Shown piece after piece: positions 4,662-58,300 of a stretch of DNA of 64,000 nucleotides; the stretch's first letter is position 1; each line of letters begins with the position of its first letter. The translations under genes and the position numbers were made by a program. Where the stretch lies: positions 31,310,001-31,374,000 of the forward strand of contig OZ024755.1 in assembly GCA_964016885.1 (NCBI GenBank). The letters are read 5' to 3'. A model generated the notes under the pieces. The model saw nothing but the letters and a program-made list of their open reading frames with translations, did not search any database and was not told the DNA's origin. The stretch is from Eledone cirrhosa. Its lineage: Eukaryota.

Positions 4662-4674
4662 TACACATACATAT

Positions 4675-4724
<50 letters not shown>

Positions 4725-5316: not shown

Positions 5317-5429
<113 letters not shown>

Positions 5430-5630: not shown

Positions 5631-5820
5631 TCGATACCCAATAAATATCTTTTATATGTAAACAAAAAAACTTCCTCTTTTCTTAATATTATATATATAT
5701 ATGTATTTGGCAGAGATGTTATGGTAACATCAGTGTCATGCTACTCCAGAGGTTCACCTATATGTTTACAGGGTCATCAGATGTCTGTTGTATATAGAGT
5801 TGTTACTTGTATTTTCCCAG

Positions 5821-5891
5821 ATCCCAGCGAAATAGACAGAATGGTTCTTGAACTGGACACAGACATCGAACATTTCACAGAGAAAAGTCTG
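5821..5891 (+). CDS. KIAA0319L: KIAA0319-like exon
   Basis: ttttcccag|AT CCC...CTG|gtaagt. Translates DPSEIDRMVLELDTDIEHFTEKSL, comparable to the vertebrate DP...LVEIILD..SQLTE segment. Phase 1 to 0. Confidence 0.85.
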
Positions 5892-11995: not shown

Positions 11996-12141
11996 CCTAA
12001 AGATAGAATTTTATGCTGTATCTGTTACCAAAGAAACAAAGGTGGTGAAGAAAGGAATTGATGTATTTCACTGGTTAAAACCACGACTGTCTTCGCAAAC
12101 GAATATCTTTGAATATTCCATCGTTGATATCAACACTTTCG
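11996..12141 (+). CDS. KIAA0319L: KIAA0319-like exon
   Basis: cactttag|C CTA AAG...TTC G|gtttgt. Translates (H)LKIEFYAVSVTKETKVVKKGIDVFHWLKPRLSSQTNIFEYSIVDINTF. Phase 2 to 1 fits both neighbours. Confidence 0.82.
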
Positions 12142-12644
12142 GTTTGTATATATTTATTGTTTCTGCTTTATTTCCTGATTTCCTGACCCCTACAATTTGT
12201 AAAAATTCAAAAGCAACATCAATTGTCAACTTCTCTTTCCTTGAATTATGTTCTCTCAGTCTTGTCCTCAGTAACCCTTTGTATTTTAGTGACTTTATTA
12301 CCTTACTTGGGGTTATATTCTCTCTGTCTTGTCCTTATCCCTTTTTGGGTAACTGGAGCACTTGTTTTATAACTTCTTTGATACAGGCTGACTAAAACAA
12401 AACTAGTTCCATTCACATTTTGTGTCACTCTATATTCATTTTCTAACTGATTGGCCTTAAATTTTAGAACATTGCAGATACAACATCTGAGAAGACAAGA
12501 CCCAATGGGACTTCCAGCACATGGAATTTCTGTGTGAAACACTACTATAAGTGTGACTCGTACAAGCAGGTCCATTTTTTTAACAGATAAATCTCCCTTC
12601 AAAGATAATATACAAAACTGGGTGAAAATATTCGAGACCTTCAA

Positions 12645-13764: not shown

Positions 13765-13887
13765 TATGTCAGAACAATTGCTCAGGACATGGAAAATGTG
13801 ACCGATACACAAAACAGTGTTTCTGTGAGGCATTTTGGATGCAGAATTTCATCCGTACAAAACTTTTTCATGGAGAAAACAACTGTG
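13765..13887 (+). CDS. KIAA0319L: KIAA0319-like exon, Cys-rich EGF-like juxtamembrane domain
   Basis: tcttacag|TA TGT...TGT G|gtaagt. Translates VCQNNCSGHGKCDRYTKQCFCEAFWMQNFIRTKLFHGENNC, matching the family C..CS.HG.CD..TK.C.C..FWM.N...G..NC signature. Confidence 0.95.
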
Positions 13888-13897
13888 GTAAGTAAAA

Positions 13898-17834: not shown

Positions 17835-18020
17835 ATTGGAGTATCCTGTATGTGGTTATTGTGTGTTTCTTGATCGTAGTTGGTATTGCAGGATTTGCTT
17901 GGCTCTCCTGCTGCATATGGAAAAGAAGACTATGTCGATGGAGGACTAGAAAACGGCCAAAATACGCTCTACTTTCACAGAATGATAGCGTTAAAGAAAA
18001 TTTTAAAATGGTAACTAAAA
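17835..18020 (+). CDS. KIAA0319L: KIAA0319-like exon, transmembrane helix and basic cytoplasmic segment
   Basis: ctcaatag|AT TGG...AAA A|gtgagt. Translates DWSILYVVIVCFLIVVGIAGFAWLSCCIWKRRLCRWRTRKRPKYALLSQNDSVKENFKMVTK, with the family WS.LYV and KY.LL motifs. Phase 1 to 1. Confidence 0.93.
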
Positions 18021-18959: not shown

Positions 18960-19070
18960 GAAGTATTACAGGACGTTTACCCAGGGTACCATGAAATGTG
19001 ACTGAACCACAAAATATGTACTTGGAAAGTGAACTCCTGTACCACCACCTTAACCACACAGCCATGTCTG
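18960..19070 (-). mobile_element. Degenerate tRNA-derived SINE head that seeds the adjacent satellite
   Basis: Minus strand ACAGACATGGCTGTGTGGTTAAG (A box)...GAGTTCACTTTCCAAG...TGGTTCAGTCAC (B-box-like)...GGTACCCTGGGTAAACGTC. Confidence 0.6.
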
Positions 19071-31000: not shown

Positions 31001-31137
31001 CCATGTCTGTACCACCACCTTAACAACACAGCCATGTCTGTACCACCTTAACCACACAGCCATGTCTGTACCACCACCTTAACAACACAGCCATGTCTGT
31101 ACCACCTTAACCACACATCCATGTCTGTACCTCCTCC
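19037..31137. repeat. 12-kb intronic satellite of 28/31-bp units with higher-order structure
   Basis: Unit CTGTACCAC(CAC)CTTAACCACACAGCCATGT. Diagnostic variants recur at offsets of 1719, about 6050 and 4332 bp. Confidence 0.97.
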
Positions 31138-31719: not shown

Positions 31720-31868
31720 CTCGTTTAAAAGCGAAGACAGGGACTCCTGCCAGCGAATCAGATCTTTCAAGTGAAGATACATTGTTTGTGAACCACAAAA
31801 GCCATAATGGACAAATCTGGCCTAAAAACGGAATAAACCAACACATAAGATCAAATATGTTAACCTAG
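31720..31868 (+). CDS. KIAA0319L: KIAA0319-like terminal coding exon
   Basis: tcttttcag|CT CGT...ACC TAG. Translates TRLKAKTGTPASESDLSSEDTLFVNHKSHNGQIWPKNGINQHIRSNMLT* (cf. SESE.DSD..IF). Phase 1 fits the previous donor. Confidence 0.87.
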
Positions 31869-31926
31869 GATTTAAACTAACTTTTTAAGTGCAACATATT
31901 AACATTGTGAGAGCTGGAGACTTTGA

Positions 31927-35935: not shown

Positions 35936-36137
35936 ATTTATTAATGCATGGACAGTTATATGACCTCCTTTTCAGCCGAGAGACATATAACTAATACTAT
36001 AAATATATATATTTATATATATATTTATATATATAAATATATATATTTATTTTTGTGGTAATTTTGAATTGTGTGCTTTTTCTCTATGTGGTTTCCGAAT
36101 CGGAAATGTTGAAATTATTGTGTTGTATCAGATGAAA

Positions 36138-36245
36138 GAATGGTATTTAACTAATGTATTGGTACGCGATGGGGCCCACCCACAGCCCTGGCGGACAGAA
36201 TGGGGAAGGCGTTTCCCCGGAGAACCGCAAGGGAGATGCGCTGGA

Positions 36246-36247
<2 letters not shown>
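36138..36247 (-). mobile_element. Short 3'-end copy of the CRE-like element
   Basis: Reverse complement of about 41089-41197, including CCCCATCGCGTACCAATACATTAGTTAAATACCATTCT. Confidence 0.88.
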
Positions 36248-36721: not shown

Positions 36722-38598
36722 TCAATGCAAATCAGGATGTTGTTGGGGATAAATGTGTCCGGGATGATGCCGGTGTACTTAGTGTCACGAATGATCAGAA
36801 AAAGGAGGCCTGGAAATGTCATTATGAGAGACTGATGAATGTGGAGAACAAATGGGAGAGAGAGAAATTGCCCTTGGTAGATCCGACAGAGGGACCAGCT
36901 ATTGAGATGGACAAATATAGGGTCCAAGAGGCGATTAGGGAAATGAAAAATGGTAAGGCTGCTGGACCATCGGGAATAGTTGCTGAGGTGCTGAAGGCAT
37001 CAGGGGACGTAGGCACTAAACTGGTTGCACGCATCATCAATCAGGCTATATATCGTGGTGTCATACCCAAAGACTGGTGCAGCAGTATTCTCATAAATTG
37101 CTACAAAGGTAAAGGGGATGCTTTGGAGAGGAGCAATTATAGGGGTATAAAACTGATAGATCAGGTTATGAAAGTGGCAGAAAGGATTTTAGCACAACTA
37201 ATTAGAGAAAGGGTCAAACTAGATGAGATGCAGTTTGGTTTTGTGCCTGGGAAGAGTACAACAGATGCCCTCTTCTTGGTGAGACAATTGCAAGAGAGGT
37301 TCTTAGAGAAGAATAAGCCACTATACTTAGCCTTTGTTGACCTAGAGAAGGCTTTGATAGGCTACCCCGATCTGTCATCTGGTGGTCCCTAAGGAAGCTG
37401 GGTGTTGAGGAATGGCTTGTGAGGACAGTGCAAACTTTGTACAGAGGTACTCTCAGTAAAGTCAGGGTAGGAATGGAGTTTAGTGAGGAATTTCAGATAC
37501 AAGTAGGAGTACATCAGGGTTCGGTCCTCAGCCCACTCTTGTTCATTATAGTCCTCCAAGCCATAACAGAGGAGTTTAAGACTGGCTGTCCATGGGAACT
37601 TCTCTATGCTGACGATCTGGTTCTTATAGCAGAATCAGTAGAGGAGCTAGAGAATAAATTCTGGCTATGGAAACAGCAGTTGGATGCAAGAGGACTGAGA
37701 GTGAATCTAGCTAAGACAAAAGTGTTGATGAGTAGAAAAGAGGACAAAACCCCGATTCCGTCAGGGAAATGGCCATGTTCGATATGCAGAAAAGGAACTG
37801 GCATAAATTCTATAAAATGCACACAATGCAGATCCTGGGTACACAAGAGATGTAGCGGGATAGCAGGCAAACTAACAGGTAGGGAGAAATATGTATGCAG
37901 TAGATGTACAGGGAAATTAGACAGTAGAAGTCGCATTGATAGACACATTTTTCAAATGCAGGAGGGCGCTATAGAAGTGGTGGATAGCTTCCGGTACCTA
38001 GGAGATCAGATTAGCATGGGAGGAGGGTGTTCCGAGGCCATAGTATCTAGAATAAGGACGGGTTGGAAGAAGTTTAGGGAGCTGCTTCCTCTGCTGACGA
38101 AGAAGGGTTTCTCCCTGCGTACGAAAGGCCGGTTGTATGATGCCTGTGTGAGGAGCGTGATGCTGCATGGTAGTGAGACATGGGCAACAACTGCAGAGGA
38201 TATGCAACGGCTGGAGAGAAATGAGGCAAGCATGCTCCGTTGGATGTGCAGTGTAAATGTGCGTGAACGACCCAGCATAAATGTGTTGAGAGAGAAACTG
38301 TGTCTGAGAGGGATAGAATATAGTGGACGGGAGAGGCGACTGAGGTGGTATGGACATGTGATGCGCATGGAGGATGACCGATGGGTGAAGAAGTGCCAGG
38401 AATTGCCAGTTGAAGGAAGACGTGGTAGAGGTAGACCACGAAAAACATGGGCGGAGGTGGTGAGAACAGACCTCAGATCATTGAAGCTCATGGTGGAGAT
38501 GACGAAGGACCGTGACGAGTGGAGAGATGCTGAATAAGACCCGTCCCACCCTTGCAAGCAGGGAAAAGCGGACGTAAAATGATGATGATGATGATGAT
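36722..38598 (+). mobile_element. 5'-truncated RTE-clade LINE, near-intact RT with one frameshift
   Basis: ORFs 36835-37392 and 37419-38537 join across a 1-nt frameshift at KAF/DR (about 37355). Motifs NYRGIKL, GVHQGSVLSPLLF and YADD (37605). Tail GGACGTAAAATGATGATGATG. Confidence 0.95.
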
Positions 38599-38619
38599 TA
38601 TATATATATATATAAATAT

Positions 38620-38820
38620 ATATTCAGGTTTGAGGTTCACCACTGGATAGAGCTGGTCAATTCCGTATGGTCAATCTTAATGTAATAATATGGAGAGTAC
38701 TCAACGTAAAGCAGTTCAACCGTCTTTGTTTTTGTAGTTGGTGGTGCTAGTACGGAGTTAAATATTATAATGAAATGACAGGAGGCTGGACTTGTGTAAA
38801 TCCTTGAAAGGTTTATTATA
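38620..38820 (-). mobile_element. Interspersed repeat (probable Penelope-associated terminal sequence), inverted homolog of 14325-14510
   Basis: GGAGTTAAATATTATAATGAAATGACAGGAGG versus CTCCTGTCATTTCACTTTATAATACATTTACTCC. Both share GAGT(A/G)CT with CAACGT. Confidence 0.5.
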
Positions 38821-38899
38821 CTATGATCATTTAAATGACCGGGTTCCGTATGAATCCGGTGATATCATCAGGTATTCGAAATATAATAAGTGAATGTAA

Positions 38900-41198
38900 T
38901 AACCACCCACTGATCTCAGACCCATACCCCCACTGGACCCCCACCTGCTCCTTGTGGCTACTGATGCAGATATCATGTCCGCCATCAGGTCCTTCCCAGC
39001 TCGCAGCTGCGGAGGTGTTGATGGTCTCCGACCAGGCCACCTCACGGAGTTGACATTCCCCTTCTCCGCTGAGGCCGGGTGCCGCCTTCTGAGTGCAATT
39101 GTGGCACTCACCATTAGGCTCATTCATGGTGCCCTTGATCCTTACGCCCGAGGCCTCTTTTTTTCGGCCAGCCTCACTGCTCTCAGGAAGAAAGAGGGTG
39201 GCATACACCCCATTGCTGTGGACAATGTCTTCCGGAGGCTGGCTGCCAATGTGATCTGCAAGTCCGTCACACACGAACTGGGTGAAGAGTTTAGTCCGGT
39301 GCAACTGGGTGTCGGCGTGTCCGGTGGCTGTGAGGGAGCCTCTCATGCAATCAGGCAGTTCTTCAGCAGCTGCCCATCGGTACCGGCATCCAGGGACTCC
39401 AGGCACCCCATTGTCAAGCTTGACATGAGGAATGCCTTTAACTCTTTACGCCGGGAACATCTGCTCGAGGCCTGCCTCAGCCGAGCCCACTCTGCCTACC
39501 CGCTGGCCTACCTGTCATATGGAGCCTCGAGCATGCTCCTAGCTGCTGATATAGTCATACCCTCGGCTACTGGGGTCCAACAGGGCGACCCTTTGGCACC
39601 CCTCCTGTTCGCCCTTGGTATTGACCACATCGCCCGGTGTATCACGGCCCCTCTCAACGTTTGGTATCTGGATGATGCTACGTTGGGCGGGCCTGTACGG
39701 ACGGTCTGCTAAGACCTTCAATCGGTGATTCCTGCCCTGGCGGGAATCGGCCTCCAGGTCAACTCGGCCAAGTCGGAGGTGGTGAACGTCAGCCTCGATG
39801 CTGCGAGCTTTGCAGCCTCCGTCTTGGACGTGCTGTCCATTCTCCGCCAGGTTCAGGTGACCCCCCAAAGAGGATGTCCTCATCCTCGGGTCACCGATCC
39901 ACCCGCCGGCAATCCGCTCCACCATCAGGTCCAGGCTTCAACAGCTCCAGACTCTCACGAGCCGACTGGGCTTGATTGATGGCCACCCAGCTCTCTTTCT
40001 GCTGAGGAACTGCTTCGCCATGCCGAAGCTCCTCTATACACTCCACAGCGCTCCATGCTACACCCAGACATCTCTCCTCGCTGACCTCGATACTTGTATC
40101 TGAGCAGCAGCCGAGGGGATATGCAATGTCAAGTTTGACGACATAGGGTGGCAACAAGCCACTTTACCGGTCAGGTATGGCGGCCTAGGCCTCCGATCCC
40201 CGATCTCACTAGCTTTGTCGGCGTATCTTTCGTCAGTAACCTCGTGCCGCGTCCTCGTCAGCAGGGTTCTTCAAAACACAACAGAACCCTCTGTGTACAG
40301 AGAACGTGAGGCCGCCTGTGAGACGTGGGACCGGATGGGACTTAGCCCAGTAGACGTTCCTCCTCCTTCTTCCCCTGTTGACGTCAAGTCCCCCCAACGC
40401 ACTTGGGATGCCATCAGTGCAGCCTGGCCTCAGACAGGCTCATGCGCCAGCTTGACCAGCACCGCCTTGCTTGTTTTCGTGCGGCCTCCAAACCCCACAG
40501 TGGTGCCTGGCTCCATGCTCTGCCCTCCTTCTCCACTGGTACGCAGCTAGACAACCATTGCCTGCGAATCGGTGTTTCCCTGAGGCTCGGTCCGGATCTG
40601 CCAGCCACACCAATGTTGCTGCGGTTCCACCGTGGACTCTTTCGGCCTCCACCCGCTTTCCTGTCGCCACAGTGCCGGCCGCATTCCACGCCATACTGCC
40701 CTCAACGAGATCATTAAGCGTGGTTTGGACGCTGCAGGCTTCCCTTCTCAGCTCGAGCCGGTGGGGCTGGATCGAGGGCACGGCAAAAGGCCAGATGGCA
40801 TGACCATCTTCCCGTTGCGCGGTGGCAAACCCCTCGTCTGGGATGCCACTTGCACCGACACTTTCTGCAGCCGCAACCTGGTGCAGTCTGCGACTGACCC
40901 AGGTTCTGCTGCACGTCGGGCTGAGGGGGCCAAACTCCTCAAATACCGGTCGCTCTCCGACAGGTTTCCGGTCGTTCCCCTGGCAGTGGAAACTTCTGGT
41001 GTCCTCGGCCCCAGGGCTACCTCCTTATTCACCACCATAGGTGCTGAGCTGGCCAGCTGCAGGTGTGAGCCTCACGAGTTGGAGTGGCTTTTCCAGCGTC
41101 TCCCTTGCCGTCCTCCGGCGAAACACCTTCTCCATTCTGTCCGCCGGGCTGTGGGTGGGCCCCATCGCGTACCAATACATTAGTTAAATACCATTCTA
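38900..41198 (+). mobile_element. CRE-clade non-LTR retrotransposon (RT plus restriction-like endonuclease), pseudogenised and 5'-truncated
   Basis: GGVDGLRPGHL, KKEGGIHPIAV, KLDMRNAFNSL, GVQQGDPLAPLLF and WYLDD, then GGLGL and SGAWL. Zinc knuckle H.LSC and RH..LN, then RLE KRPDG..WDAT..AE..K..KY..PLAVETSG. Several stops and frameshifts. Confidence 0.9.
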
Positions 41199-41469
41199 AC
41201 TAGGAAACCGAATGATTCTCGGCTTCAGAAATAACGTTTAATAAAATATATGTGTATAAATACATATATTTTTTTAAATACATATATATATATATATATA
41301 TTATATACATATTTATAATATATATATATATATACATTATATATGTATGTATTAATATATATAGTAATTATTTATTATTAATATAAATATATATATACTA
41401 TATATAAAATGGGAAGTATACAATCTAAAAAGAATCGAACTCACGATCGTGAAATCGCAATGGCTTTAA

Positions 41470-41632
41470 ATACTTTGCACATGCGCACTGGTGTCTAAAT
41501 TTTTGCGCATGTGTAATTGGCCTAATTCTCTTTCGCAAAAACAAAATGGCCGCTGTAACAATTTCTATTTTTTCTAACCCGAATGAAAAACGTTAACAAT
41601 TTGGATTTTACTATTTATAAGGAGGTAAAGTA
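41470..41632 (+). promoter_or_regulatory. Putative promoter and first exon (NRF1-like and YY1-like motifs, AG|GTAAAG donor)
   Basis: TGCACATGCGCA and TGCGCATGTG, then AAAATGGCCGC (about 41543) and GGAG|GTAAAGTA (41625). An inverted paralog lies at 48010-48175. Confidence 0.5.
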
Positions 41633-41959
41633 AAGTTTTATTTTATGTTGAACAGTTTTATGTTTATTTCCTTCCATAAACGTCAGCAGTAATTATTGAA
41701 ACGATAGTTTTGTTTAGCTACTGCAACATCTCCATGTAGTGTTGTATTTCAATGGTGCTCATTGTTACGTGATAGGTTGATCATTCTACATTATCTTATG
41801 CAAGAACGTTACGTTTCCAAAGCAATCCAGGTTAAAGACAGGGGAACAGACAGATATGATGTTGTCATTGCTTATATCTGTTCCACTTTACATGTGTGTG
41901 CAGTTGATTGTCAATAGTAAGCAGTTAGAACCATTGAAGTAAACCTACATGGCACACCA

Positions 41960-42700
41960 AAACCACCCTCCTCCATAGTTGGTCAATTCAGGGTGAGAGG
42001 GTGATTGAAGCCGTTTAAGGACGTATATTTCTCGTGGGAACCTCTACGGGTAGCTACTTCTCGTATGATCCTCTTGGTCAATGCCAGGTTGCTACTCGTG
42101 GGAACCTCTACGGGTAGCTACTTCTCGTATGATCCTCTTGGTCAATGACATGAGCACTTTAAAGGCGTAAACATCTCGTACGATCCTCTACAGCCAGCTA
42201 AACCATAATCAGTGCCTACTTAGAGGGCGTAAACATCTCGTACGATCCTCTACAGCCAGCTAAACCATAATCAGTGCCTACTTAGAGGGCGTAAACATCT
42301 CGTACGATCCTCTACAGCCAGCTAAACCATAATCAGTGCCTACTTAGAGGGCGTAAAGATCTCGTAGGATCCTCTACAGCCAGCTAAACCCTGGTCACTA
42401 AAACCACCCTCCTCCACAGTTGGTGAATTCCAGGTGAGAGGGCGATTGAAGCACTTTAAGAGCGTAAACATCTCGTACGATCCTCTACAGCCAGCTAAAC
42501 CTTGGTCAATGCCAGGTTAGATGGTGAAATAAGCAGTTTAAGGCCGTATACTTCTCGTGGGATCCTCTACGCCCAGCTAAACCATGATCAGTGCCTGTTT
42601 AGAGAGGGTGTAAACATCTCGTAGGAACCTCTACAGCCAGCTAAACCCTGGTCAATGTCGTGAGAGGGCGATTGAAGCACTTTAAGGGCGTAAACTTCGA
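41960..42700. repeat. About 62-bp tandem repeat family
   Basis: GGGCGTAAACATCTCGTACGATCCTCTACAGCCAGCTAAACCATAATCAGTGCCTACTTAGA, about 10 variable copies. Confidence 0.88.
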
Positions 42701-42989
42701 TAATGTCTGGTCAGTGACACTTTCAAAAACACACATTTCATATAGATTTTTTGGCATACATGACTTTTAACGGTCTGAAAAATGAAAGTAAATTTATTTT
42801 CATTTTCGAACGTCGTATTTACATTTTGTGTGTTTAGATCTAAATTAGTTACTGAGATTAAAGACAAAATCAGAGCCTTTGTCGTTTTAACTGATTATAT
42901 ATATGTGTGTGTGTAGTTGACGGTTGAGAGAAGAGTACTCAATACCAAAGTAATCTTGTAATGAGGCTTGCAGAATGGTGAGTCCGCCA

Positions 42990-43255
42990 TTCTGGACGCT
43001 GCTACCTTGTAGAAGTCCCAAATCGAAGCTCTGACATTCTTGTCCCCATCATTCAGCAGGGATTTTGCCAGGCAGCCGCATCATCTCCGATGGTTGGGCT
43101 TCCTATTCGGAAATTGAAGGTTGGATTTACGTTCATGATGTTGTGGTGCACGAACGGAACTTTGTAGATCCTGCGGACTCTGATGTGCACACACAGCTCA
43201 TAAAGAACACATGGAGCCGTGCAAAGAAGAAGCTTCGTCGCCAGCATGTTTCCTT
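42990..43255 (+). mobile_element. Merlin/IS1595 (ISXO2-like) DDE transposase fragment
   Basis: VEVPNRSS..ILPGSRIISDGWASY...H..V.HERNFVDP...HTQLIKNTWSRAK, the Merlin catalytic-core signature. The final E appears as K. Confidence 0.8.
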
Positions 43256-43313
43256 TAAACACACACACAAAATGTAAACACGACGTTCGAAAATAAAAAT
43301 AAATTTACTTCCA

Positions 43314-44040
43314 TTATTGCGACCTTTTTATGCAGCTGTCATCCTTCATACGCATCACATGTCCATACCAACGCATCCGCTTCTCCTGCACACAACATTT
43401 GATTCCTCTTATGCTCAGTCTCTCTCTCAATTCATTTATGCTTTGTCGTTCGCGTATATTACTATTACACATCCATCGGAGCATGCAGGCTTCGTTTCTC
43501 TCTAATCTACGTAAGTCTTCCACCTTCAGCCCCCAGGTCTCACTACCATGTAACATTGCTGTTCGGATACACGCATCATACAGTCTGCCTTTCATTTTGA
43601 GGGAGAAGCCTTTTGCAGCTAGCAGTGGCAGTAGCTCCCTGAACTTCTTCCATCCCGTTCTTACCCTAGTCATTGTACTTTCTGAACACCCACCTCCGCT
43701 GCTAATTCGGTCACTAGGTAGCAGAAGCTGTCTACTGTTCCTCCCAGAGATTGGTGGTACTTGTTTCCTGTTTGCTGTTCCAGCACAGCTGCTGCATGTG
43801 AAGCCTACATTCTTAATTAAGCTTCCTGAGATCCCGCTACATCTCTTGTGTACCCATTGTTTGCATTTGGGGCAGAGAATGGAGTTCCTACCTACACCTT
43901 TCCTACATACTGAGCAAGGCCATTTCCCTGAGGGGATCTGGGTTCTGTTTTCTTGTCCTTACAAGGTCCTTAGTCTTTGTCATGTTGACTTTGAGACCCT
44001 TTCTTTCTAGTCCCTGCTTCCAAGTTTGGAATTTCTTCTC
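43314..44040 (-). mobile_element. RTE LINE RT fragment
   Basis: ORF 43314-43673 RVRTGWKKFRELLPLL...MLHGSETW...RWYGHVMR. The upstream Cys-rich segment is also present. Confidence 0.9.
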
Positions 44041-44110
44041 TGTAACATAGAACCATTTACATTCTTAGTTTCTTCATTTACTTTCTTTGTTCCTTTTCAA
44101 CACTTCATTA

Positions 44111-44373
44111 ACATTCTTAGTTTCCTCTAATTAAATGTATATATAATTGTTTCTACATTTGGCACAAGGCCAGCAGATTACTGGTACTTTATTTTATCGA
44201 CCCCGTAAGGGTGAAAGGCAAAGTTAACCTCGATCTCAGTTCAAATCCCGTCGAGATTAACTTTGCCTTTCATCCTTACGGGGTCGATAAAATAATGTAC
44301 TGGATAATTGCTGGCCTTGTGCCAAAAGTAGAAACTATTATATATACATTTAAATAGAGGAAACTAAGAATGT
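44111..44373. repeat. Fold-back palindrome of two head-to-head SINE 3' halves plus their flank
   Basis: ACATTCTTAGTTTCCTCTAATTAAATGTATATATAATTGTTTCTAC... is mirrored by ...GTAGAAACTATTATATATACATTTAAATAGAGGAAACTAAGAATGT. Confidence 0.88.
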
Positions 44374-44733
44374 ATATATAATAAAAGACAAAATTGGATG
44401 AATTTTATCAAGTTTAATATTGTTTTTATTGATAACGTATGTTCATTTCTTTTTACAGATGTCCAGACTTCAAGTTCGTATCCTGTGGGAATGGCGTAGT
44501 TTCTGTTAATAAAGAAAGTTTTCATTTTATTTTATTTTGACAAAAATGAATAAAGAAAGTTTACATATTATATACGAATTGTGTTAATTTTACTTTAACA
44601 AAAATGAATAAAGAAATCAAGTCCACAAGAAACTGAGTAAGACGTACTAAAAAGAACGTAAGTGTACGAAGTTTCTAAATAAGAAACTAAAAATGTCGAA
44701 AAAAAAACCTATATGAAACGCGACGCCATCTTG

Positions 44734-44838
44734 TTTTTTTTTTTATTTCTCCACTTTAGAGGCATCAGATACTCATGCATGGTTAAAGGCATGGAGCGAG
44801 GAACTGATGCCTCTAAAGTGGAGAAATAAAAAAAAAAA
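44734..44838. repeat. Perfect 35-bp inverted repeat (hairpin)
   Basis: T11-ATTTCTCCACTTTAGAGGCATCAG (44734-44768) pairs with CTGATGCCTCTAAAGTGGAGAAAT-A11 (44804-44838). Confidence 0.95.
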
Positions 44839-45521
44839 TTAACGGGGGGGCCCCCTCTGTGATGGAAATTTAAAAAAAAATTTGAATAGTTGCTTCCCTT
44901 ACTTTTTACAAAGAGAAGTCATTAGAAGCCATTTATTAGGCTAATTTTTTTTCATTGTCAAACAATATGTAGAATTTTTTAATATTTTTTCTCGTAAATA
45001 ATGTGTAAAGATTCTTTTATTAACAAAATCTTTTTTCATACAATTTGTAAATTTTATTAACAGACACTTCGACTTGTAGAAATATTCCCTCAGTGGTTAC
45101 GGCAAACAACACAGCATATGACCGAGAAGGCTGGATGGACATCTGTAAGAAAAATGAAATAAGAAAAACTATGAGAATCATTTACATACGTTGTCAATAA
45201 AAATGTTTAAACTTCATCAAATTCTTCCAGTTTTGTCATATTTTGTACATAAATATGAAGATAAATTTGTTTTGCGAGGTTTTTTATATGAAATCGTGTA
45301 TCGAAACAAATATTGTTATACTTGGGGAGGGTTATATTGTTGTAATAATATTGCCAGAAATAATAACAGAACACACTATAAAGATATATATTTAAATACT
45401 CACGTTGTCAATTAAACAAGGGTGTGCGGGCAACATAATGATCTGTCGGTTGTGAAGTTACGGATTTCAATAAACCAAATGAATATGACCTCGGATTTTT
45501 TATTGATATATATATATATAT

Positions 45522-46112
45522 ACTAGCAGCAGTACCCAGCGTTGCCTGGGTAAGTAAAATATCTGCTTTGATGAAAAGGTGTTGATCTTAGCGACTGCTT
45601 CTCGATGACTCATCTATAGCCACACACAGGCCATGTGGGGGAGGGTGGTGATGAGCTATATCACTGAGAAACGTGGGTTACTGACGAAGGGGCATACTGG
45701 GGGAGGGAGTTTCGAATTTGAACGAAATCGGTTGAAACATGTGGGAACTGGAGCCGAAAAGGTGGTATTTTCGAATATTTAAGCGGCTGCCACGCCGTCC
45801 CTGAACAACAAATGCAAAATATAAAGCCATTACAGGATGTGCAATGATAAATTCTATTTTGCTTTAAAATTTGAACGAAATCGGTGGCAAAATGTGGGAG
45901 CTAGAGCCAAACATCTTATATTTCGATACCTAAAAAAAGGTGACCCCGCTATCGATTTTTATCTGCAGAATGACCCAGGAACAAAAAAAAACAAAAACGA
46001 TACGCTGATATATAGAAAACACTCCCCCGATGACTAGTCTATGAGCCTGTAAAGTTTCATGAAAATCGGTCGTAAGATGTAGGCCCCTATAGCTAATACA
46101 CAGACACATACA
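45522..46112 (+). mobile_element. Non-autonomous Helentron/HINE-like element
   Basis: Begins (TA)n TACTAGCAGCAGTACCCAGCGTTGCCTGGGT (subterminal hairpin). Internal repeats TTTGAACGAAATCGGT. AAGTTTCATGAAAATCGGTC precedes ACACAGACACATAC. Confidence 0.6.
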
Positions 46113-46189
46113 CGTGTGCAGGTAAGTATCAGTGTTAATTAAGATGATGATCACGTAGGAAATATTTCTGTTGATGTAAAGAACTTCGC

Positions 46190-46361
46190 TGGCTTGTTCG
46201 AAAGAGAGAGTAGGACCCAAAGGGTCTGTTCTTTTAAAATCTGTATTGGTACCCACTTCCTATGGAAAGAGGCGAAGAGAATGTCCCAAGATGAACTGGT
46301 GGCAGACAAAAAAAATCTATGCTAAACTTTATTTCATTAAATTGTGTGCATCACAAACACA

Positions 46362-46409
<48 letters not shown>

Positions 46410-47720
46410 CAAGATCCAAGACTTCATTCGTTTAACGAGTGGGGTAGAGCTCCTCGGACGGAGGAAACAATGTTTCCATTGCTAATACTATGTCGATCAC
46501 AAATCCAGACAGAATGAGCAATGTGAAATAAAGTGTACATACATATTTTCTCATATCACCAATCTGACGAGCAGATCGATACTGGAGTCGAGTCCATAAC
46601 TCCTATGGGTCACCTTGAGCGCGTAACAGGTCGATACGCAATAAATATTTTTCATATGTAAACGAAACTTGCTCGTTTTTTTCTATTATATATATATATA
46701 TATATATACTGAAATATGTAGGGAGGTGTTGTATTATATTAGAAATACATTAACACGGGAGAAGGGTTGCAATAGCTAAACAACACTATCGTTTAATTAT
46801 GTCTCACCACGTGGGAGTTTTAAGTCTAATCTGTCTCACACGACTCCCAAACGAGAGACATGATAATCCAAAGGGAAATAAAAATACAAAGTTAGTTGGA
46901 ATAAAATAAAGATATACTTTACCTTCGTAAAAATGGTAAAAATCCAAGGTTTTAACGTTTATTTTTTCTACAGGCTGGAAAGCACGTTTAAAAGTTAAGC
47001 AGAGAGAAGGAGAGAGAGACCCAAAGGGTCTGTTCCGTGTAAATCTGTATTGGTACCCCAACTCCCAAGAATGTAGATGAAGTGTCTAAAAAAAGAAACT
47101 ATATCTATTTGTCTGTCTGCCTGTCTATCTATCTCACACGACTCCCAAGTGCTATACATGTGAATCAGGTCCTGTATTGATACCCACTCCTGTAATAAGA
47201 GACGAAGAGGATGTCCCAAGATGAACTGGCGACAGGGACCTGAAATCCGCCAACAAAACAGAAGTTGGAACGATGTATTGATAGATGCAACTGACCATGG
47301 TGGTCGATGGAGCACTTTGGTTGCCTCGTGTGTTTAAAGATGAGGGAGTTTTTAAGTCTAATCTATCTGTCTGTGCGTTCATTTCTCACGATTCCCAAAT
47401 GAGACATGCTAACCAGGTTCTGTATTGGGAAGAGGACGACCCAAGATGAACTGGTGCTAGACAATCGACAGAGACCTAAAGCCCCTCAACAAAAGTTGGA
47501 ACGATGTATTGATAGATGCAACTGATCGTAGTGGTCATTGGATCACTTTAATTGTATCATGTGTCTCAAAATGTGGCAGCTTCTGGCATCATTACAAGAC
47601 ATGAAATGTTCTCATACATGACTTTAATTGCCTTCGCGATCTGCTGGGGGTACCCCGTTAACAAAACAAACGTTTGAACGATGTATTGATAGATGCAACA
47701 GACCGTAGTAGTTGATTTTT
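46190..47720 (-). repeat. Local diverged tandem segmental repeats
   Basis: TTGGAACGATGTATTGATAGATGCAAC-type x3 (about 47265, 47495, 47675). CCCAAGATGAACTGG x3. GACCCAAAGGGTCTGTTC x2. Confidence 0.75.
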
Positions 47721-48009
47721 GCCGACCAACAAAAGGGGCAGACATTGAGTGTCTATGATATCAACCAATACCACCCGAAACTTTGTTAGTTTATACAACT
47801 GTAGCCACCAATATTATAAGAATATTCATTTAAGTTTTCATATTATAAGTATTTGAATTCAAGGGGTGTTTTTGTGGTCGCAATGTATATTGAAATACGT
47901 GCGGAGGGGAAGCAATAGCTAAACAAGACTATCGTTTAATTAGTTATTGGTGACATTATGGAGGGAAATAAATACACAATATTTCAATAAAAGACTTCAA
48001 CATAAAATA

Positions 48010-48175
48010 AAGCTTTACTTTACCTTCGTAAAAATGGTAAAAATCCAAGTTTTTAACGTTTATTTTTTCTACGGGCTTGAAAATACATCTAATATTTAAG
48101 CAGCCATTTTTTTTCTGAAATATTTACAGCAATTGCGCATGCGCAAAAAATTAAACGTCAGTTCGCATGTGCATG
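48010..48175 (-). promoter_or_regulatory. Putative promoter and first exon (perfect NRF1 palindrome, YY1-like motif, donor)
   Basis: TGCGCATGCGCA at about 48134-48145. On the minus strand AAAATGGCTGC and GAAG|GTAAAGTA. A partial third copy lies at about 46765-46980. Confidence 0.5.
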
Positions 48176-48319
48176 GAATTTTTCAACATGAACGTATCCA
48201 CAGCTATAGAAACCGAAAATAAGTGTAAAATTACACACACATGTACACCAGATCCGAACAGAGAGGAACCAAAACTCCCAGTGTCATCGCCTCTCTCGCC
48301 TTCCCCATCTCTCACTATT

Positions 48320-48560
48320 ATGAGCAAATGGGGTCCCACGGGTTGGCCACCCCGCGAACAGAATAGAGAAGGCCTTTCCCTGGAAGATGGTAAGGGAGAT
48401 GCGCTGGAAGAGCCATTCCAACTCGCGAGGCTCACACATGCGGCGAGCCAGTGCTCAACTGCAAACCTGCCGGAGAGTGACCGATATTTGGAGAGTTTAC
48501 CCTCCTCAGCTTGAAGTGCAGCAGAGCCTGGGTTAGTCGCAGACTGCACCAGGTTTCCAC
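48320..48560 (-). mobile_element. CRE-like element 3' fragment (diverged paralog of 40875-41165)
   Basis: NLVQSATNPGSAALQAEEGKLSKYRSLSGRFAV...ELEWLFQRISL, with an internal deletion. Confidence 0.85.
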
Positions 48561-48599
48561 CATTGGTCGCACTACTATTGCGGCGATCGTGCCAGTGAA

Positions 48600-48760
48600 G
48601 GTTACCACCAACATTGCCGGATGCGGCTAGGGAATCGCTAAGGTTATCTGAGCTGCCGTACTCCCTAAAATTGTCGTTGCTAGGATGCTGTATTTTAGTG
48701 AGCTTGTTGGAGTTACTTATCGCTATGAGGTCAGCTAGATTGGGTGTAGTGGAGAAGGAT
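48600..48760 (-). mobile_element. Penelope-like RT-EN linker fragment
   Basis: Minus strand SFSTTPNLADLIAISNSNKL, homologous to FSTAPNMADY.VKTNAVKL at about 50150. Confidence 0.55.
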
Positions 48761-48763
48761 ATA

Positions 48764-48806
<43 letters not shown>

Positions 48807-49599
48807 TAAAATAACAGATTAAAGTTTAAGCAAATAATCGCTGCTTTCACCCTTAACGAAAAACATTGCAACCGAAGGAAAACAGGAAGACGATACTTTG
48901 GTTCGTAGAGACGTTCCCTGGCAATGAACGGAAAAAAGCGAAGATAATACGTCGTTATGTGGAGCGTTGAGAACAATTACACGCAAAGGCAAAACCACAT
49001 TTATGGTATAACTGAAGTCGTAGACTAAAATTCTATTTAGGAAACCGAATGATTCTCGACTTCAGAGTTAAGAATAATGTAAATAAATTACAGAGGTTAT
49101 TGAAGTCAACAATAATTAAATATATACATACACGTATCCATATACGTACATACACATGCATACACGAAAACACCTACCAATGTATGCATATACACGCACG
49201 TACACAAAAACACGCGCACACATACAAAAACCCGCGCAACACCTGTACCTGTACACATACGAACGTATACACCAAATACGCATAAAAAAATATATTAAAA
49301 AAAATATATATATATGTGTGTGTGTTTGACGTGTATCCATATAATTATATAAACGTATATAAATATACACACATAAATACGTATATAACGCACGCACACA
49401 CATACCTACAGGTAAATACACATGTTTGCTAAACGTACGTCAAGCAAAACACAAAGTACACATATACACACCCTACATACATGCAAAACCGCATACACAC
49501 ACTAACGCAAAATACACGTATACACAAAACCATATACACATGTACCAGTATATATAATATATACACCTATAACAAATACAAGCAAAAATACGTACGAGA

Positions 49600-50260
49600 A
49601 AGTATATGTACGTTGAGATCATTTGGGGTGCCGTTGTCTTTCAAGTCCCATATTAGGTCCGCCAGCCTTGTGGAGTGTCTCTTGCTCCGGTCCTTGAAAG
49701 AGTTTGTGTAATTATACATCCTCGATTTAAAGGTCGTGGAAGTTGCGCCAATGTCGGTGCGCTCTGTGTTGTGCATGTTAACCACACATTTATATACTAG
49801 GCCCTTCGTTAGGCATCTTCCCTACAGGGGCCATTGTGTGCCCGCTCTGCAGTTGCATGTTCGGTCGTTATGTTGCTCATTTCCAACGCTCGGCCCTTGG
49901 TCTACCACGGCCCTCCCACGATTCTCTGGTTGTTGTTCTGTCGGTGCGGTGTCCTGTCCGCCCGGCATTCGATTACAGCGTCTTCCACAGGCATGGTGGT
50001 CGCTGCAGGGTCCAGAGTATAGTTGGAGACCCTGTCTGCAAGGGGCCCTCCGTTCCCGTGACCGTCAGTCGCCCGCCGCTGTTGACGGTCGAGTTTTCCC
50101 AACTTCACCGCGTTGGTTTTGACCGTGTAGTCTGCCATGTTAGGTGCGGTGGAGAAGAACTTCACCGTGTGGCGGTCGAATATCCTGTGGTACCTGCTCA
50201 ACGGCGGGAAGCACTTGTCCAACGCTCGGGGAAACAATTGTAACACACAATAAGTTGAGT
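49600..50260 (-). mobile_element. Penelope-like element fragment with GIY-YIG endonuclease
   Basis: ALDKCFPP..RYHRIFDRHTVK.FSTAPNM, then CNCR..CPL.G.CLTKGLVYKC...(D)IGATSTTFKSRMYN.TNSFK..KRHSTRLADLIWDLKD. Frameshifted. Confidence 0.85.
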
Positions 50261-52377: not shown

Positions 52378-55300
52378 CCATGTATAGGATGTGTAGCAAC
52401 CTTCTGAAGGACTTGTACCCCATGTATGGGATGTGTAGCAACCTTCTGAAGGACTTGTACCCCATGTATGGGATGTGTAGCAACACTCTGAAGGACTTGT
52501 ACCCCATGTATGGGATGTGTAGCAACCTTCTGAAGGACTTGTACCCCATGTATGGGATGTGTAGCAACCTTCTGAAGGACTTGTACCCCATGTATGGGAT
52601 GTGTAGCAACCTTCTGAAAAACTTGTACCCCATGTATGGGATATGTAGCAAACTTCTGAAGAACATGTACCCCATGTATGGGATATGTAGCAACCTTCTG
52701 AAGGACTTGTACCCCATGTATGGGATGTGTAGCAACCTTCTGAAGAACTTGTACCCCATGTATGGGATGTGTAGCAACACTCTGAAGGACTTGTACCCCA
52801 TGTATGGGATGTGTAGCAACCTTCTGAAGGACTTGTACCCCATGTATGGGATGTGTAGCAACCTTCTGAAGGACTTGTACCCCATGTATGGGATGTGTAG
52901 CAACCTTCTGAAAAACTTGTACCCCATGTATGGGATATGTAGCAACCTTCTGAAGGAATTGTACCCCATGTATGGGATGTGTAGCAACCTTCTGAAGAAC
53001 TTGTACCCCATGTATGGGATGTGCAGCAACATTCTGAAGGACTTGTACCCCATGAATGGGATATGTAGCAACCTTCTGAAGGACTTGTACCCCATGTATG
53101 GGATGTGTAGCAACCTTCTGAAGGACTTGTACCCCATGTATGGGATGTGTAGCAACCTTCTGAAGGACTTGTATCCCATGTATGGGATGTGCAGCAACCT
53201 TCTGAAGGACTTGTACCCCATGTATGGGATGTGTAGCAACCTTCTGAAGGACTTGTACCCCATGTATGGGATGTGTAGCAACCTTCTGAAGGACTTGTAC
53301 CCCATGTATGGGATGTGCAGCAACCTTCTGAAGGACTTGTACCCCATGTATGGGATGTGTAGCAACCTTCTGAAGGACTTGTACCCCATGTATGGGATGT
53401 GTAGCAACCTTCTGAAGGACTTGTACCCCATGTATGGGATGTGTAGCAACCTTCTAAAGGACTTGTACCCCATGTATGGGATGTGTAGCAACCTTCTGAA
53501 GGACTTGTACCCCATGAATGGGATGTGTAGCAACCTTCTGAAGGACTTGTACCCCATGTATGGGATGTGTAGCAACCTTCTCAAGGTCTTGTACCCCATG
53601 TATGGGATGTGTAGCAACCTTCTGAAGAACTTGTACCCCATGTATGGGATATGTAGCAACCTTCTGAAGGACTTGAACCCCATGTATGGGATGTGCAGCA
53701 ACCTTCTGAAGGACTTGTACCCCATGTATGGGATGTGCAGAAACCTTCTGAAGGACTTGTACCCCATGTATGGGATGTGTAGCAACCTTCGGAATGACTT
53801 GTACCCCATGTATGGGATGTGCAGCAACCTTCTGAAGGATTTGTAGCCATGTATGGGATGTGTAGCAACCTTCTGAAGGACTTGTACCCCATGTATGGGA
53901 TATGTAGCAACCTTCTGAAGGACTTGAACCCCATGTATGCGATGTGCAGCAACCTTCTGAAGGACTTGTACCCCATGTATGGGATTTGTAGCAACCTTCT
54001 GAAGGACTTGAACCCCATGTATGGGATATGTAGCAACCTTCTGAAGGACTTGTACCCCATGTATGGGATTTGTAGCAACCTTCTGAAGGACTTGTACCCC
54101 ATGTATGGGATATGCAGCAACCTTCTGAAGCACTTGTACCCCATGTATGGGATATGTAGCAACCTTCTGAAGGACTTGTACCCCATGTATGGGATGTGTA
54201 GCAACCTTCTGAAGCACTTGTACCCCATGTATGGGATGTGTAGCAACCTTCTAAAGGACTTGTACCCCATGTATGGGATGTGCAGCAACCTTCTGAAGGA
54301 CTTGTACCCATGTATGGGATGTGTAGCAACATTCTGAAGGACTTGTACCCCATGTATGGGATGTGCAGCAACCTTCTGAAGGACTTGTACCCCATGTATG
54401 GGATGTGTAGCAACCTTCTGAAGGACTTGTACCCATGTATGGGAAGTGTAGCAACCTTCTGAAGGACTTGTACCCCATGTATGGGATGTGTAGCAACCTT
54501 CTGAAGGACTTGTACCCCATGTATGGGATGTGTAACAACCTTCTGAAGGACTTGTACCCCATGTATGGGATGTGTAGCAACCTTCTGAAGGTCTTGTACC
54601 CCATGTATGGGATGTGTAGCAACCATCTGAAGGACTTGTACCCCATGTATGGGATGTGTAGCAACCTTCTGAAGGACTTGTACCCCATGTATGGGATGTG
54701 TAGCAACCTTCTGAAGGACTTGTACCCCATGAATGGGATGTGTAGCAACCTTCTGAAGGACTTGTACCCCATGTATGGGATGTGTAGCAACCTTCTGAAG
54801 GTCTTGTACCCCATGTATGGGATGTGTAGCAACCTTCTGAAGAACTTGTACCCCATGTATGGGATATGTAGCAACCTTCTGAAGGACTTGAACCCCATGT
54901 ATGGGATGTGCAGCAACCTTCTGAAGGACTTGTACCCCATGTATGGGATGTGTAGCAACCATCTGAAGGACTTGTACCCCATGTATGGGATGTGTAGCAA
55001 CCTTCTGAAGGACTTTTACCCATGTATGGGATTTGTACCAACCTTCTGAAGGACTTGTACCCCATGTATGGGATGTGTAGCAACCTTCTGAAGGAATTGT
55101 ACCCCATGTATGGGATGTGCAGCAACCTTCTGAAGGACTTGTACCCCATGTATGGGATTTGTAGCAACCTTCTGAAGGACTTGAACCCCATGTATGGGAT
55201 GTGCAGCAACCTTCTGAAGGACTTGTACCCCATGTATGGGATTTGTAGCAACCTTCTGAAGGACTTGAACCCCATGTATGGGATATGTAGCAACCTTCTG

Positions 55301-58300
55301 AAGGACTTGTACCCCATGTATGGGATTTGTAGCAACCTTCTGAAGGACTTGTACCCCATGTATGGGATGTGCAGCAACCTTCTGAAGGACTTGTACCCCA
55401 TGTATGGGATGTACAGCAACCTTCTGAAGGACTTGTACCCCATGTATGGGATATGTAGCAACCTTCTGAAGGACTTGTACCCCATGTATGGGATGTGTAG
55501 CAACCTTCTGAAGCACTTGTACCCCATGTATGGGATGTGTAGCAACCTTCTGAAGGACTTGTACCCCATGTATGGGATGTGTAGCAACCTTCTGAAGGAC
55601 TTGTACCCCATGTATGGGATGTGTAGCAACCTTCTGAAGGTCTTGTACCCCATGTATGGGATGTGTAGCAACCTTCTGAAGAACTTGTACCCCATGAATG
55701 GGATTTGTAGCAACCTTCTGAAGGACTTGTACCCCATGTATGGGATGTGTAGCAACCTTCTGAAGGACTTGTACCCCATGTATGGGATGTGTAGCAACCT
55801 TCTGAAGGACTTGTACCCCATGTATGGGATGTGTAGCAACCTTCTGAAGGACTTGTAGCCATGTATGGGATGTGTAGCAACCTTCTGAAGGACTTGTACC
55901 CCATGTATGGGATATGTAGCAACCTTCTGAAGGACTTGAACCCCATGTATGCGATGTGCAGCAACCTTCTGAAGGACTTGTACCCCATGTATGGGATTTG
56001 TAGCAACCTTCTGAAGGACTTGAACCCCATGTATGGGATATGTAGCAACCTTCTGAAGGACTTGTACCCCATGTATGGGATTTGTAGCAACCTTCTGAAG
56101 GACTTGTACCCCATGTATGGGATATGCAGCAACCTTCTGAAGCACTTGTACCCCATGTATGGGATGTGCAGCAACCTTCTGAAGGACTTGTACCCCATGT
56201 ATGGGATATGTAGCAACCTTCTGAAGGACTTGTACCCCATGTATGGGATGTGTAGCAACCTTCTGAAGCACTTGTACCCCATGTATGGGATGTGTAGCAA
56301 CCTTCTAAAGGACTTGTACCCCATGTATGGGATGTGCAGCAACCTTCTGAAGGACTTGTACCCATGTATGGGATGTGTAGCAACATTCTGAAGGACTTGT
56401 ACCCCATGTATGGGATGTGCAGCAACCTTCTGAAGGACTTGTACCCCATGTATGGGATGTGTAGCAACCTTCTGAAGGACTTGTACCCATGTATGGGATG
56501 TGTAGCAACCTTCTGAAGGACTTGTACCCCATGTATGGGATGTGTAGCAACCTTCTGAAGGACTTGTACCCCATGTATGGGATGTGTAGCAACCTTCTGA
56601 AGGACTTGTACCCCATGTATGGGATGTGTAGCAACCTTCTGTAGGACTTGTACCCCATGTATGGGATGTGTAGCAACCTTCTGAAGGACTTGTACCCCAT
56701 GTATGGGATGTGTAGCAACCTTCTGAAGGTCTTGTACCCCATGTATGGGATGTGTAGCAACCTTCTGAAGAACTTGTACCCCATGAATGGGATATGTAGC
56801 AACCTTCTGAAGGACTTGAACCCCATGTATGGGATGTGCAGCAACCTTCTGAAGGACTTGTACCCCATGTATGGGATGTGTAGCAACCTTCTGAAGGACG
56901 TGTACCCCATGTATGGGATGTGTAGCAACCTTCTGAAGGACGTGTACCCCATGTATGGGATGTGTAGCAACCTTCTGAAGGACTTGTACCCCATGTATGG
57001 GATGTGTAGCAACCTTCTGAAGGACTTGTACCCCATGTATGGGATGTGTAGCAACCTTCTGAAGGACTTGTACCCATGTATGGGATGTGCAGCAACCTCC
57101 TGAAGGACTTGTACCCCATGTATGGGATGTGTAGCAACCTTCGGAATGACTTGTACCCCATGTATGGGATGTGCAGCAACCTTCTGAAGGACTTGTACCC
57201 CATGTATGGGATTTGTAGCAACCTTCTGAAGGACTTGTACCCCATGTATGGGATGTGCAGCAACCTTCTGAAGGACTTGTACCCCATGTATGGGATGTGT
57301 AGCAACCTTCTGAAGGACTTGTACGCCATGTATGGGATGTGCAGCAACATTCTGAAGGACTTGTACCCCATGAATGGGATATGTAGCAACCTTCTGAAGG
57401 ACTTGTACGCCATGTATGGGATGTGCAGCAACCTTCTGAAGGACTTGTACCCCATGTATGGGATGTGTAGCAACCTTCTGAAGGACTTGTACCCCATGTA
57501 TGGGATGTGTAGCAACCTTCTGAAGGACTTGTACCCCATGTATGGGATGTGTAGCAACCTTCTGAACGAGTTGTACCCCATGTATGGGATGTGTAGCAAC
57601 CTTCTGAAGGACTTGTACCCTATGTATGGGATGTGTAGCAACCTTCTGAAGGACTTGTACCCATGTATGGGATGTGCAGCAACCTTCTGAAGGACTTGTA
57701 CCCCATGTATGGGATGTGTAGCAACCTTCTGAAGGACGTGTACCCCATGTATGGGATGTGTAGCAACCTTCTGAAGGACTTGTACCCCATGTATGGGATG
57801 TGTAGCAACCATCTGAAGGACTTGTACCCCATGTATGGGATGTGTAGCAACCTTCTGAAGGACTTGTACCCATGTATGGGATTTGTAGCAACCTTCTGAA
57901 GGACTTGTACTCATGTATGGGATTTGTAGCAACCTTCTGAAGGACTTGTACCCCATGTATGGGATGTGTAGCAACCTTCTGAAGGACTTGTACCCCATGT
58001 ATGGGATGTGCAGCAACCTTCTGAAGGACTTGTACCCCATGTATGGGATGTGCAGCAACCTTCTGAAGGACTTGTACCCATGTATGGGATGTGTAGCAAC
58101 ATTCTGAAGTACTTGTACCCCATGTATGGGATGTGCAGCAACCTTCTGAAGGACTTGTACCCCATGTATGGGATGTGTAGCAACCTTCTGAAGCACTTGT
58201 ACCCCATGTATGGGATGTGCAGCAACCTTCTGAAGGACTTGTACCCCATGTATGGGATATGTAGCAACCTTCTGAAGGACTTGTACCCCATGTATGGGAT

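Follow-up and report, generated by a model that had tools for sequence, protein, structure and literature searches.

The DNA considered here is a 64,000-nucleotide (nt) stretch of the Eledone cirrhosa genome (assembly GCA_964016885.1, contig OZ024755.1, positions 31,310,001 to 31,374,000 of the forward strand), referred to below as the window and numbered from its first letter. It carries two convergent predicted transcription units that meet at a perfect hairpin and that we tentatively read as members of a family of spliced noncoding genes. An earlier note, drawn from the letters of the window, had proposed a pair of convergent, spliced, noncoding paralogs with introns packed with transposable element (TE) relics, and this description fits the sequence, the splicing being predicted. 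The conserved parts of the two arms and the CRE-like fragments upstream of them are these:

38903-41197, plus strand: CRE/SLACS-like retrotransposon lacking long terminal repeats (non-LTR type), 5'-truncated and broken, upstream of the left unit (RVT_1, E = 8.6e-8)
41468-41553, plus strand: left promoter-like block, with NRF1-like sites at 41477-41486 and 41505-41514 and a YY1-like site at 41543-41553
41543-41624, plus strand: left predicted exon 1, its start placed near the YY1-like site, ending at an AG/GTAAAG donor
41625-41755, plus strand: left conserved 5' intron flank, with stretches identical to the right arm at 27/30 and 24/26 positions
44387-44577, plus strand: left 3' island, comprising the end of the intron, an acceptor with 44459 as the first base of the exon, a short terminal exon, and AATAAA at 44508 and 44549
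44734-44838: hairpin midway between the units, arms 44734-44768 and 44804-44838, 35-nt loop
44992-45237, minus strand: right 3' island, comprising the end of the intron, an acceptor with 45142 as the first base of the exon, a terminal exon, and AATAAA at 45058 and 45021
47885-48181, minus strand: right promoter-like block, followed by predicted exon 1 (to 48024), the donor, and the conserved 5' flank of the intron
48325-48555, minus strand: CRE-like 3' fragment, short and internally deleted, upstream of the right unit and 84% identical to the left CRE

When the region from 40.5 to 49.2 kb was compared with the masked window, the mirror matches were the CRE-like ends, the promoter/donor block, the acceptor block, and the central hairpin. 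The mirror-symmetric layout is real, and its coordinates and motifs were verified by this self-comparison and by a motif listing; the symmetry resides only in the homologous islands, whereas the interiors and the CRE-to-promoter spacers align at shuffle level. The promoter/exon-1/donor block of ~290 bp (41468-41724 on the plus strand against 48181-47912 on the minus strand) is 72% identical with gaps (E = 6e-38) and identical at 216/277 positions (78%) without them. The acceptor/terminal-exon/AATAAA block of ~190 bp has a core, 44387-44442 on the plus strand against 45237-45184 on the minus strand, that matches at 82% (E = 4e-8). Three motifs, AAAATGGC.GC, ACAGATGTCCA, and TCTGTTAATAAA, occur exactly twice each in the whole window, once per arm, and AGGTAAAGTA is listed at both arms and in a third donor block (46924-46915, minus strand). 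No BLAST match joins the interiors of the predicted introns (left, 41625-44458, 2,834 nt; right, 48023-45143, 2,881 nt). Just past the donor blocks, 143 of 200 shuffles align as well as the two arms do, and for the spacers between CRE and promoter the count is 105/200; only the stretch beyond the poly(A) signals beats every shuffle (0/200; 0/500), and homology runs ~65 nt past the first AATAAA. In each arm at least four insertions or arrays lie in the interior, and the conserved blocks show short indels only. The two introns are almost equal in length despite their unrelated interiors.

Within the islands, identity was scored by segment, ungapped, left arm against right. From the promoter inward it is 42/53 over the region of NRF1-like sites, 11/18 in the linker, 10/11 at the YY1-like site, 20/34 in the middle of exon 1, 31/37 before the donor, and 27/30 over the first 30 intron nt after it, followed by 34/43 in the further intron flank, 24/26 in a 26-nt element (41699-41724) that is kept in all three donor blocks, and 17/25 beyond that element. 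At the other end, 46/54 positions agree in the intron end and 14/16 directly before the acceptor, against 34/43 plus 35 gap columns in exon 2. The processing signals, that is, the splice flanks, are better kept than the exon bodies. Donor, acceptor, AATAAA, and YY1-like site are retained in both arms as had been proposed; for the GCGCATGCGC-type site the proposal stands only in part, each arm having a single near-perfect copy and the alignment placing the two at differing positions. The names NRF1 and YY1 are consensus labels for these promoter-like motifs. The CpG observed/expected ratio reaches 1.64 (41430-41624) and 1.77 (48024-48230) at the promoters, whereas the introns have 0.67 and 0.87 and the body of the neighboring gene 0.39; from 38000 to 50000 it is 0.6 to 1.3 throughout. 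Mammalian host genes show an excess of exonic indels with retained structure, according to the excerpted text of PMC4739325.

The donor, acceptor, and poly(A) signals are canonical and correctly ordered and oriented in both arms, each of which carries two homologous AATAAA, and both units are likely to be transcribed and spliced. A TATA-less, NRF1/YY1-type promoter would fire each unit toward the center, the ~2.85-kb intron would be spliced out, and a 150- to 250-nt RNA would be polyadenylated, its predicted length varying with where it starts, which poly(A) site it uses, and whether it includes exon 1b; selection would retain the processing signals and not the exon text. Comparison of open reading frames (ORFs) and Pfam searches found none common to the two arms, in line with the noncoding description. 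An ATG does stand immediately 3' of the acceptor in both arms, yet it is extremely unlikely that the units encode short peptides from this ATG at the start of exon 2. The resulting ORFs are 16 and 40 aa long and do not share a frame, sibling copies differ by a segregating 4-nt indel, and upstream ATGs in exon 1 open unrelated short ORFs; the peptides have no Pfam match and a single match among 1.84 billion representatives, 7/13 to a repetitive protein. The idea that the units are ZNF 5' exons was rejected, there being no space for a coding exon and no conserved donor after exon 2.

The perfect 35-bp hairpin at 44734-44838 stands as first described, with 35/35 pairs, of which a T/A run accounts for 11 (-67.7 kcal/mol, z = -10.9, 0/200 shuffles). 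Its A-runs point outward, each of its arms contains AATAAA, and the distance to the first poly(A) signal is 221 bp for the left unit and 215 bp for the right. Because these distances are equal in effect and homology continues past the poly(A) signals, the pair likely arose by an old inverted duplication centered on the hairpin, whose stem would since have been renewed or kept.

Copy number was gauged from the contigs of three runs of one sample, which contain 0.34 to 0.38 of the sampled words and were aligned to the window at 80%. The runs are of unrecorded kind and could derive from a different individual or from some near relative, as several positions show solely letters other than those of the window. 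What follows draws on 40 of the 448 rows of differences, 12 of the 105 rows of indels, 15 of the 791 joints, and 24 of the 333,630 pieces, and summed depth per bin is no copy number. That depth is 160 to 1,760 in the islands, 260 to 335 in the hairpin bin, 2,000 to 5,500 in a Merlin-like relic of the left intron, 0.55 to 1.2 million in a long interspersed nuclear element (LINE) fragment, and ~5 million in a short interspersed nuclear element (SINE). The case that the earlier note had named as fatal to its reading, islands that are parts of high-copy TEs, fails on the gap between the depth of the islands and that of the Merlin-like relic and the SINE. Near-identical left-arm contigs cover 41623-41915 at depth 54.7 (5 other letters) and 44559-44761 at depth 56 (4 other letters), while the remaining 22 of the 24 listed pieces have depths of 4.0 to 17.4, and we infer that the left arm has about four to eight close siblings. 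Distinct contigs number up to 10 or 11 at 48134-48209 and 4 to 10 at 41689. Some variants combine exon-2 features of the two arms (9 nt inserted at 44441; 4 nt at 45132 absent from 4 to 7 contigs; a joint of 44485 with 45096), and a 398-nt contig matches 47915-48113 at 84% and not beyond, as a paralog with unfitting flanks would. In this one sample the islands appear to come from a low-copy family whose members number roughly in the tens. The paralogy first proposed holds, but not the notion of a pair as sole copies, since the contigs show several near-identical siblings and more strongly diverged variants. The locus patterns have no match in metagenome or viral contigs, and no cephalopod family of this kind was found described in the literature listings and openings of abstracts consulted.

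A multicopy family with conserved ends and unrelated interiors of equal length, in which convergent spliced units meet ~500 bp apart, also recalls a mobile element, in which the islands would be the ends of a low-copy, nonautonomous element with inward promoters and variable cargo, Mutator/Pack-MULE- or Foldback-like. We consider this very unlikely. No target site duplication (TSD) marks the outer borders (the best candidate is a 7-mer off the borders), the arms are only 78% alike (216/277), no transposase of its own was found, within a given arm the 5' island is not an inverted repeat of the 3' island, and no Helitron-type end was seen by eye. Copies do appear in the contigs, but their ends do not. 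The large fold-back element once offered as an option founders on the same tests of TSD and arm identity.

The two introns hold the following:

41950-42700: degenerate 62- to 82-bp tandem array, left intron, without homology to the right intron
42769-43327, plus strand: relic of a Merlin-like (ISXO2-type) DNA transposon, in sense orientation to the left unit (PF12762, E = 2.5e-10), with 65-bp inverted ends, 89% identical
43322-44110, minus strand: LINE fragment, antisense to the left unit, 72-74% identical to a reverse transcriptase (RT)-bearing copy at 36730-38540, with a PHD match
44111-44373: 263-bp fold-back palindrome in which two SINE 3' halves lie inverted to each other, together with ~36 nt of non-SINE flank in duplicate
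45250-46100: high-copy repeats, right intron (bin depths 26,000 to 263,000)
46761-47002, minus strand: third partial donor block, 89% identical to the right block, without promoter
47006-47760: three diverged tandem units, 66-82% identical, with an invariant 24-mer

The name Merlin denotes eukaryotic transposons related to IS1595/ISXO2, the LINE fragment at 43322-44110 is presumably RTE-like, and the stretch 45520-46100 is putatively Helentron-like. Neither the SINE fold-back nor the third donor block figured in the earlier note. The SINE fold-back is a long inverted repeat inside a predicted transcription unit; it lies in the left intron, 85 nt upstream of the acceptor, and folds at -180 kcal/mol (z = -26.9, 0/200 shuffles). 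Because the other SINE copies end at 44341, without the ~36-nt flank duplicated here, its structure points to a local fold-back event rather than two insertions. An 11-nt stretch is missing from both of its arms at one and the same point, yet the arms retain different letters. In the right intron, the third donor block has gained a pyrimidine tract, a branch-point-like CTTAAC, and a TTTCCAG acceptor upstream, and it appears to be a 52-nt candidate internal exon (46974-46923) that re-uses a donor block. The invariant 24-mer lies at 47268-47291, 47499-47522, and 47676-47699, and a run of 24 invariant columns arose in 0 of 100,000 column shuffles. Its copies are followed on the plus strand by CTGA, CTGA, and CAGA and lack a precursor microRNA (pre-miRNA) fold. 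Another constant stretch is a 15-mer, CCCAAGATGAACTGG, which three units (near 46274, 47214, and 47439) have in common.

Small-RNA genes were sought in both introns. Layouts of the H/ACA type number 0 in the left intron and 1 in the right, the latter absent from the paralogous units, and C/D-like layouts are solely antisense to the hosts, at a background rate of 0.5 to 1.2 per kb. Sliding folds and folds of the conserved flanks (z = -0.7 to -2.0) gave no pre-miRNA-type hairpin common to the paralogs, and the alignment folds contained no two-sided covariation. A conserved hairpin at the 26-nt element was rejected despite one compensatory pair (z = -0.7 to -0.9). Likeness between this element and the 24-mer was likewise discarded (score 16 to 25 against a null mean of 28.9), as was pairing between them in the right arm, where 5 of 40 shuffles give an equal duplex; in the left arm the best partner of the 26-mer (1/40) lies within the Merlin-like relic and has no counterpart. 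No tRNA gene was found, neither a hammerhead nor a spliced-leader RNA was seen by eye or matched in Rfam, and the short motifs of the locus have no match in the MirGeneDB 3.0 supplement (148,107 characters; PMC11701709), which may lack cephalopod sequences.

Upstream of the mirrored locus, the exon at 140-277 encodes a K319L-like PKD domain by profile search and is 91% identical to KIAA0319-like proteins of O. vulgaris and O. sinensis (5 matches among 13 candidates). The gene is laid out as follows:

140-277, 5820-5891, 12015-12145, 13765-13888, 17836-18012, and 31721-31870, plus strand: exons of a KIAA0319-like gene, the first by search and the others by eye

By our reading of the sequence its 3' end would lie near 31870, with the mirrored locus downstream, amid satellites. 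A 12-kb satellite (19037-31131) fills the last intron of this gene, and a 42-bp satellite of 277 copies runs from 52378 to 64000 and past the end of the window. A broken ORF at 49570-50240 on the minus strand resembles by eye a Penelope-type GIY-YIG end, with no Pfam match at E 0.05. The entire mirrored locus is bracketed by a 37-bp direct repeat, 92% identical (41193-41229 and 49030-49066), whose weak similarity extends to an AATAAA and which may be a retroelement tail. Around both promoters, at 41204, 48209, and 49041, lies GAAACCGAA, which has a single further copy, at 15975, and resembles an interferon-response-type site.

The left CRE carries stops and frameshifts, and its C-terminal piece has 166 relatives, which are RT-bearing and one of which is named "Retrotransposable element SLACS protein." The CRE-like 3' ends reported for both arms do match, 40875-41148 against 48555-48350, at 163/193 positions (84%). 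A third such end, at 36137-36246, is identical to the left copy at 102/107 positions and has no promoter block alongside. Three CRE-like fragments occur in a span of 13 kb, all close to an (AT)n tract; two of the three precede promoter blocks and share their orientation, and an insertion preference of CRE is possible.

Taken together, the two units may be tail-to-tail members of a low-copy octopod family of spliced RNA polymerase II (Pol II) noncoding genes whose repeat-loaded introns feed small-RNA pathways, a reading that we favor tentatively and rate at somewhat less than an even chance. The intron would act as a landing pad, its TE fragments being cut into PIWI-interacting RNAs (piRNAs) and the SINE fold-back into small interfering RNAs (siRNAs), and read-through over the central hairpin would contribute double-stranded RNA (dsRNA). 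Molluscs, O. bimaculoides included, have PIWI genes, and TE-rich piRNA clusters are known in this phylum, as set out in the excerpted text of PMC6128900.

Several observations weigh against this reading, some bearing on the introns and others on the conserved blocks. For known small RNAs, Rfam returned 22 matches, none of them at gathering score and the miRNA matches no exception; the suggestion that the units host small nucleolar RNAs (snoRNAs) or miRNAs finds no support in Rfam, the layout scans, or the folds. The SINE fold-back is present in the left arm only, and the TEs of the left intron are in mixed orientation (Merlin-like sense, LINE antisense), not uniformly antisense. TE-rich introns are moreover ordinary, because an O. 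vulgaris assembly consists of repeats to ~66% in the portion of PMC13282606 consulted. The same gene family could instead be one of ordinary long noncoding RNAs (lncRNAs), in which the short RNA or transcription and splicing in cis matters and the intron TEs are passengers that yield no small RNAs. All the structural evidence above applies equally to this explanation, and the intron interiors are wholly unconserved. Octopuses have thousands of putative lncRNAs, with promoters conserved at 7% compared with 4.6% for coding genes, in the excerpt of PMC9115989. The exon bodies, however, are the least conserved parts, arguing against a functional mature RNA, and the predicted RNA is only ~150 to 250 nt long; we regard ordinary lncRNAs as rather unlikely.

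As to the conserved blocks, the excess of identity in the motifs of the 5' block is modest (37/41 against 179/247, p = 0.03, with motifs picked post hoc), and in the 3' block it is 34/39 against 80/105 (p = 0.18). The CpG excess is weak support for promoters, because in octopus, by the excerpt of PMC9476566, it is mainly gene bodies that are methylated and other DNA seldom is; low CpG decay is expected anyway in octopus intergenic DNA and TEs, as the same excerpt has it, and the promoter CpG counts are small (10 and 9). The changes between the CRE-like ends fall evenly on codon positions 1, 2, and 3 (9, 10, and 11), with 3 synonymous and 7 nonsynonymous codons in segment 1, and because of this even spread we take the CRE fragments to diverge by neutral decay. 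They are not significantly closer (163/193) than the promoter blocks (216/277; Fisher p = 0.096), and with divergence this similar the blocks may be neutral duplicates of the age of the CRE split, around a once-short intron.

Such a history would make the units decayed duplicates: a small gene or 5' stub, perhaps with a CRE, copied by hairpin-centered inverted duplication and later by segmental duplications, then drifting and gathering independent insertions. The matching poly(A)-to-hairpin distances and the homology past the first AATAAA (0/500 shuffles) accord with this, as does the CRE decay, neutral in pattern and similar in size to the block divergence. Near-identical left-arm siblings that include intron interior and left hairpin arm suggest segmental duplication, and a second, independent fold-back 360 bp away implies that the region makes palindromes. 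Against it, the CRE-like ends are much closer than the linker and the middle of exon 1 (31/52; p = 2e-4). This gap and the lost homology of the spacers (105/200 shuffles as good) fit an older split with retained signals and with CRE inserted twice, separately. On both arms, too, donor, acceptor, and the two AATAAA survive, and a perfect 35-bp stem misfits the age of 78%-identical arms unless it was renewed. On balance, we find decay of this kind rather improbable.

If the favored reading of small-RNA-feeding noncoding genes is extended, octopods may run transposon defense from a family of standardized mini-clusters in which a fixed cassette, promoter-donor plus acceptor-poly(A), encloses an exchangeable intron trapping TE fragments and fold-backs, tail-to-tail pairs around a hairpin yielding piRNA precursors and dsRNA and CREs preferring sites upstream of the promoters, an extension that we offer as speculative and distinctly unlikely. 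Octopus genomes are about two-thirds repeats and transposon DNA methylation in them is nearly absent, on the evidence of the excerpts of PMC13282606 and PMC9476566, which raises the question of how octopuses control transposons. A recognizable family of noncoding units with a common cassette supplies exact junctions and motifs for octopus RNA, chromatin accessibility (ATAC), and small-RNA data; should the units prove silent or without small RNAs, the locus would be an ordinary or decayed lncRNA duplicate.

Known systems resemble the locus in parts. In MuDR/Pack-MULE and Foldback elements the mirrored ends carry convergent promoters, and the cargo between them varies. The locus shares the mirrored ends, convergent promoters, and variable cargo but differs in having no TSD, arms of 78% identity, no transposase, and 3' exons that are mirrored too. 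The hairpin-RNA (hpRNA) loci of Drosophila are sources of endogenous siRNAs; like them, the locus has a long, near-perfect inverted repeat (~120-bp stem) inside a predicted Pol II transcript, although here the repeat is intronic, SINE-made, and confined to a single arm. Octopus lncRNAs, in the excerpt of PMC9115989, are similarly noncoding and TE associated, with promoters better kept than expected, although no paralog family with a common promoter-splice cassette is described in that excerpt. Small-RNA host lncRNAs, as excerpted from PMC4739325, are alike in their short, indel-bearing exons, kept splice sites and promoter, and lack of an ORF, and here too the intron would be the likely product; the locus differs in that no box C/D, H/ACA, or pre-miRNA common to both introns was found, and in its unconserved interiors and its multicopy, tail-to-tail family. 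The flamenco locus of Drosophila is a promoter-driven, spliced, single-strand piRNA cluster. Although the units here are only ~3 kb each and their TEs are in mixed orientation, they are like the molluscan piRNA clusters of PMC6128900, as far as its excerpt describes them, in setting a Pol II unit, predicted in our case, over an array of TE fragments.

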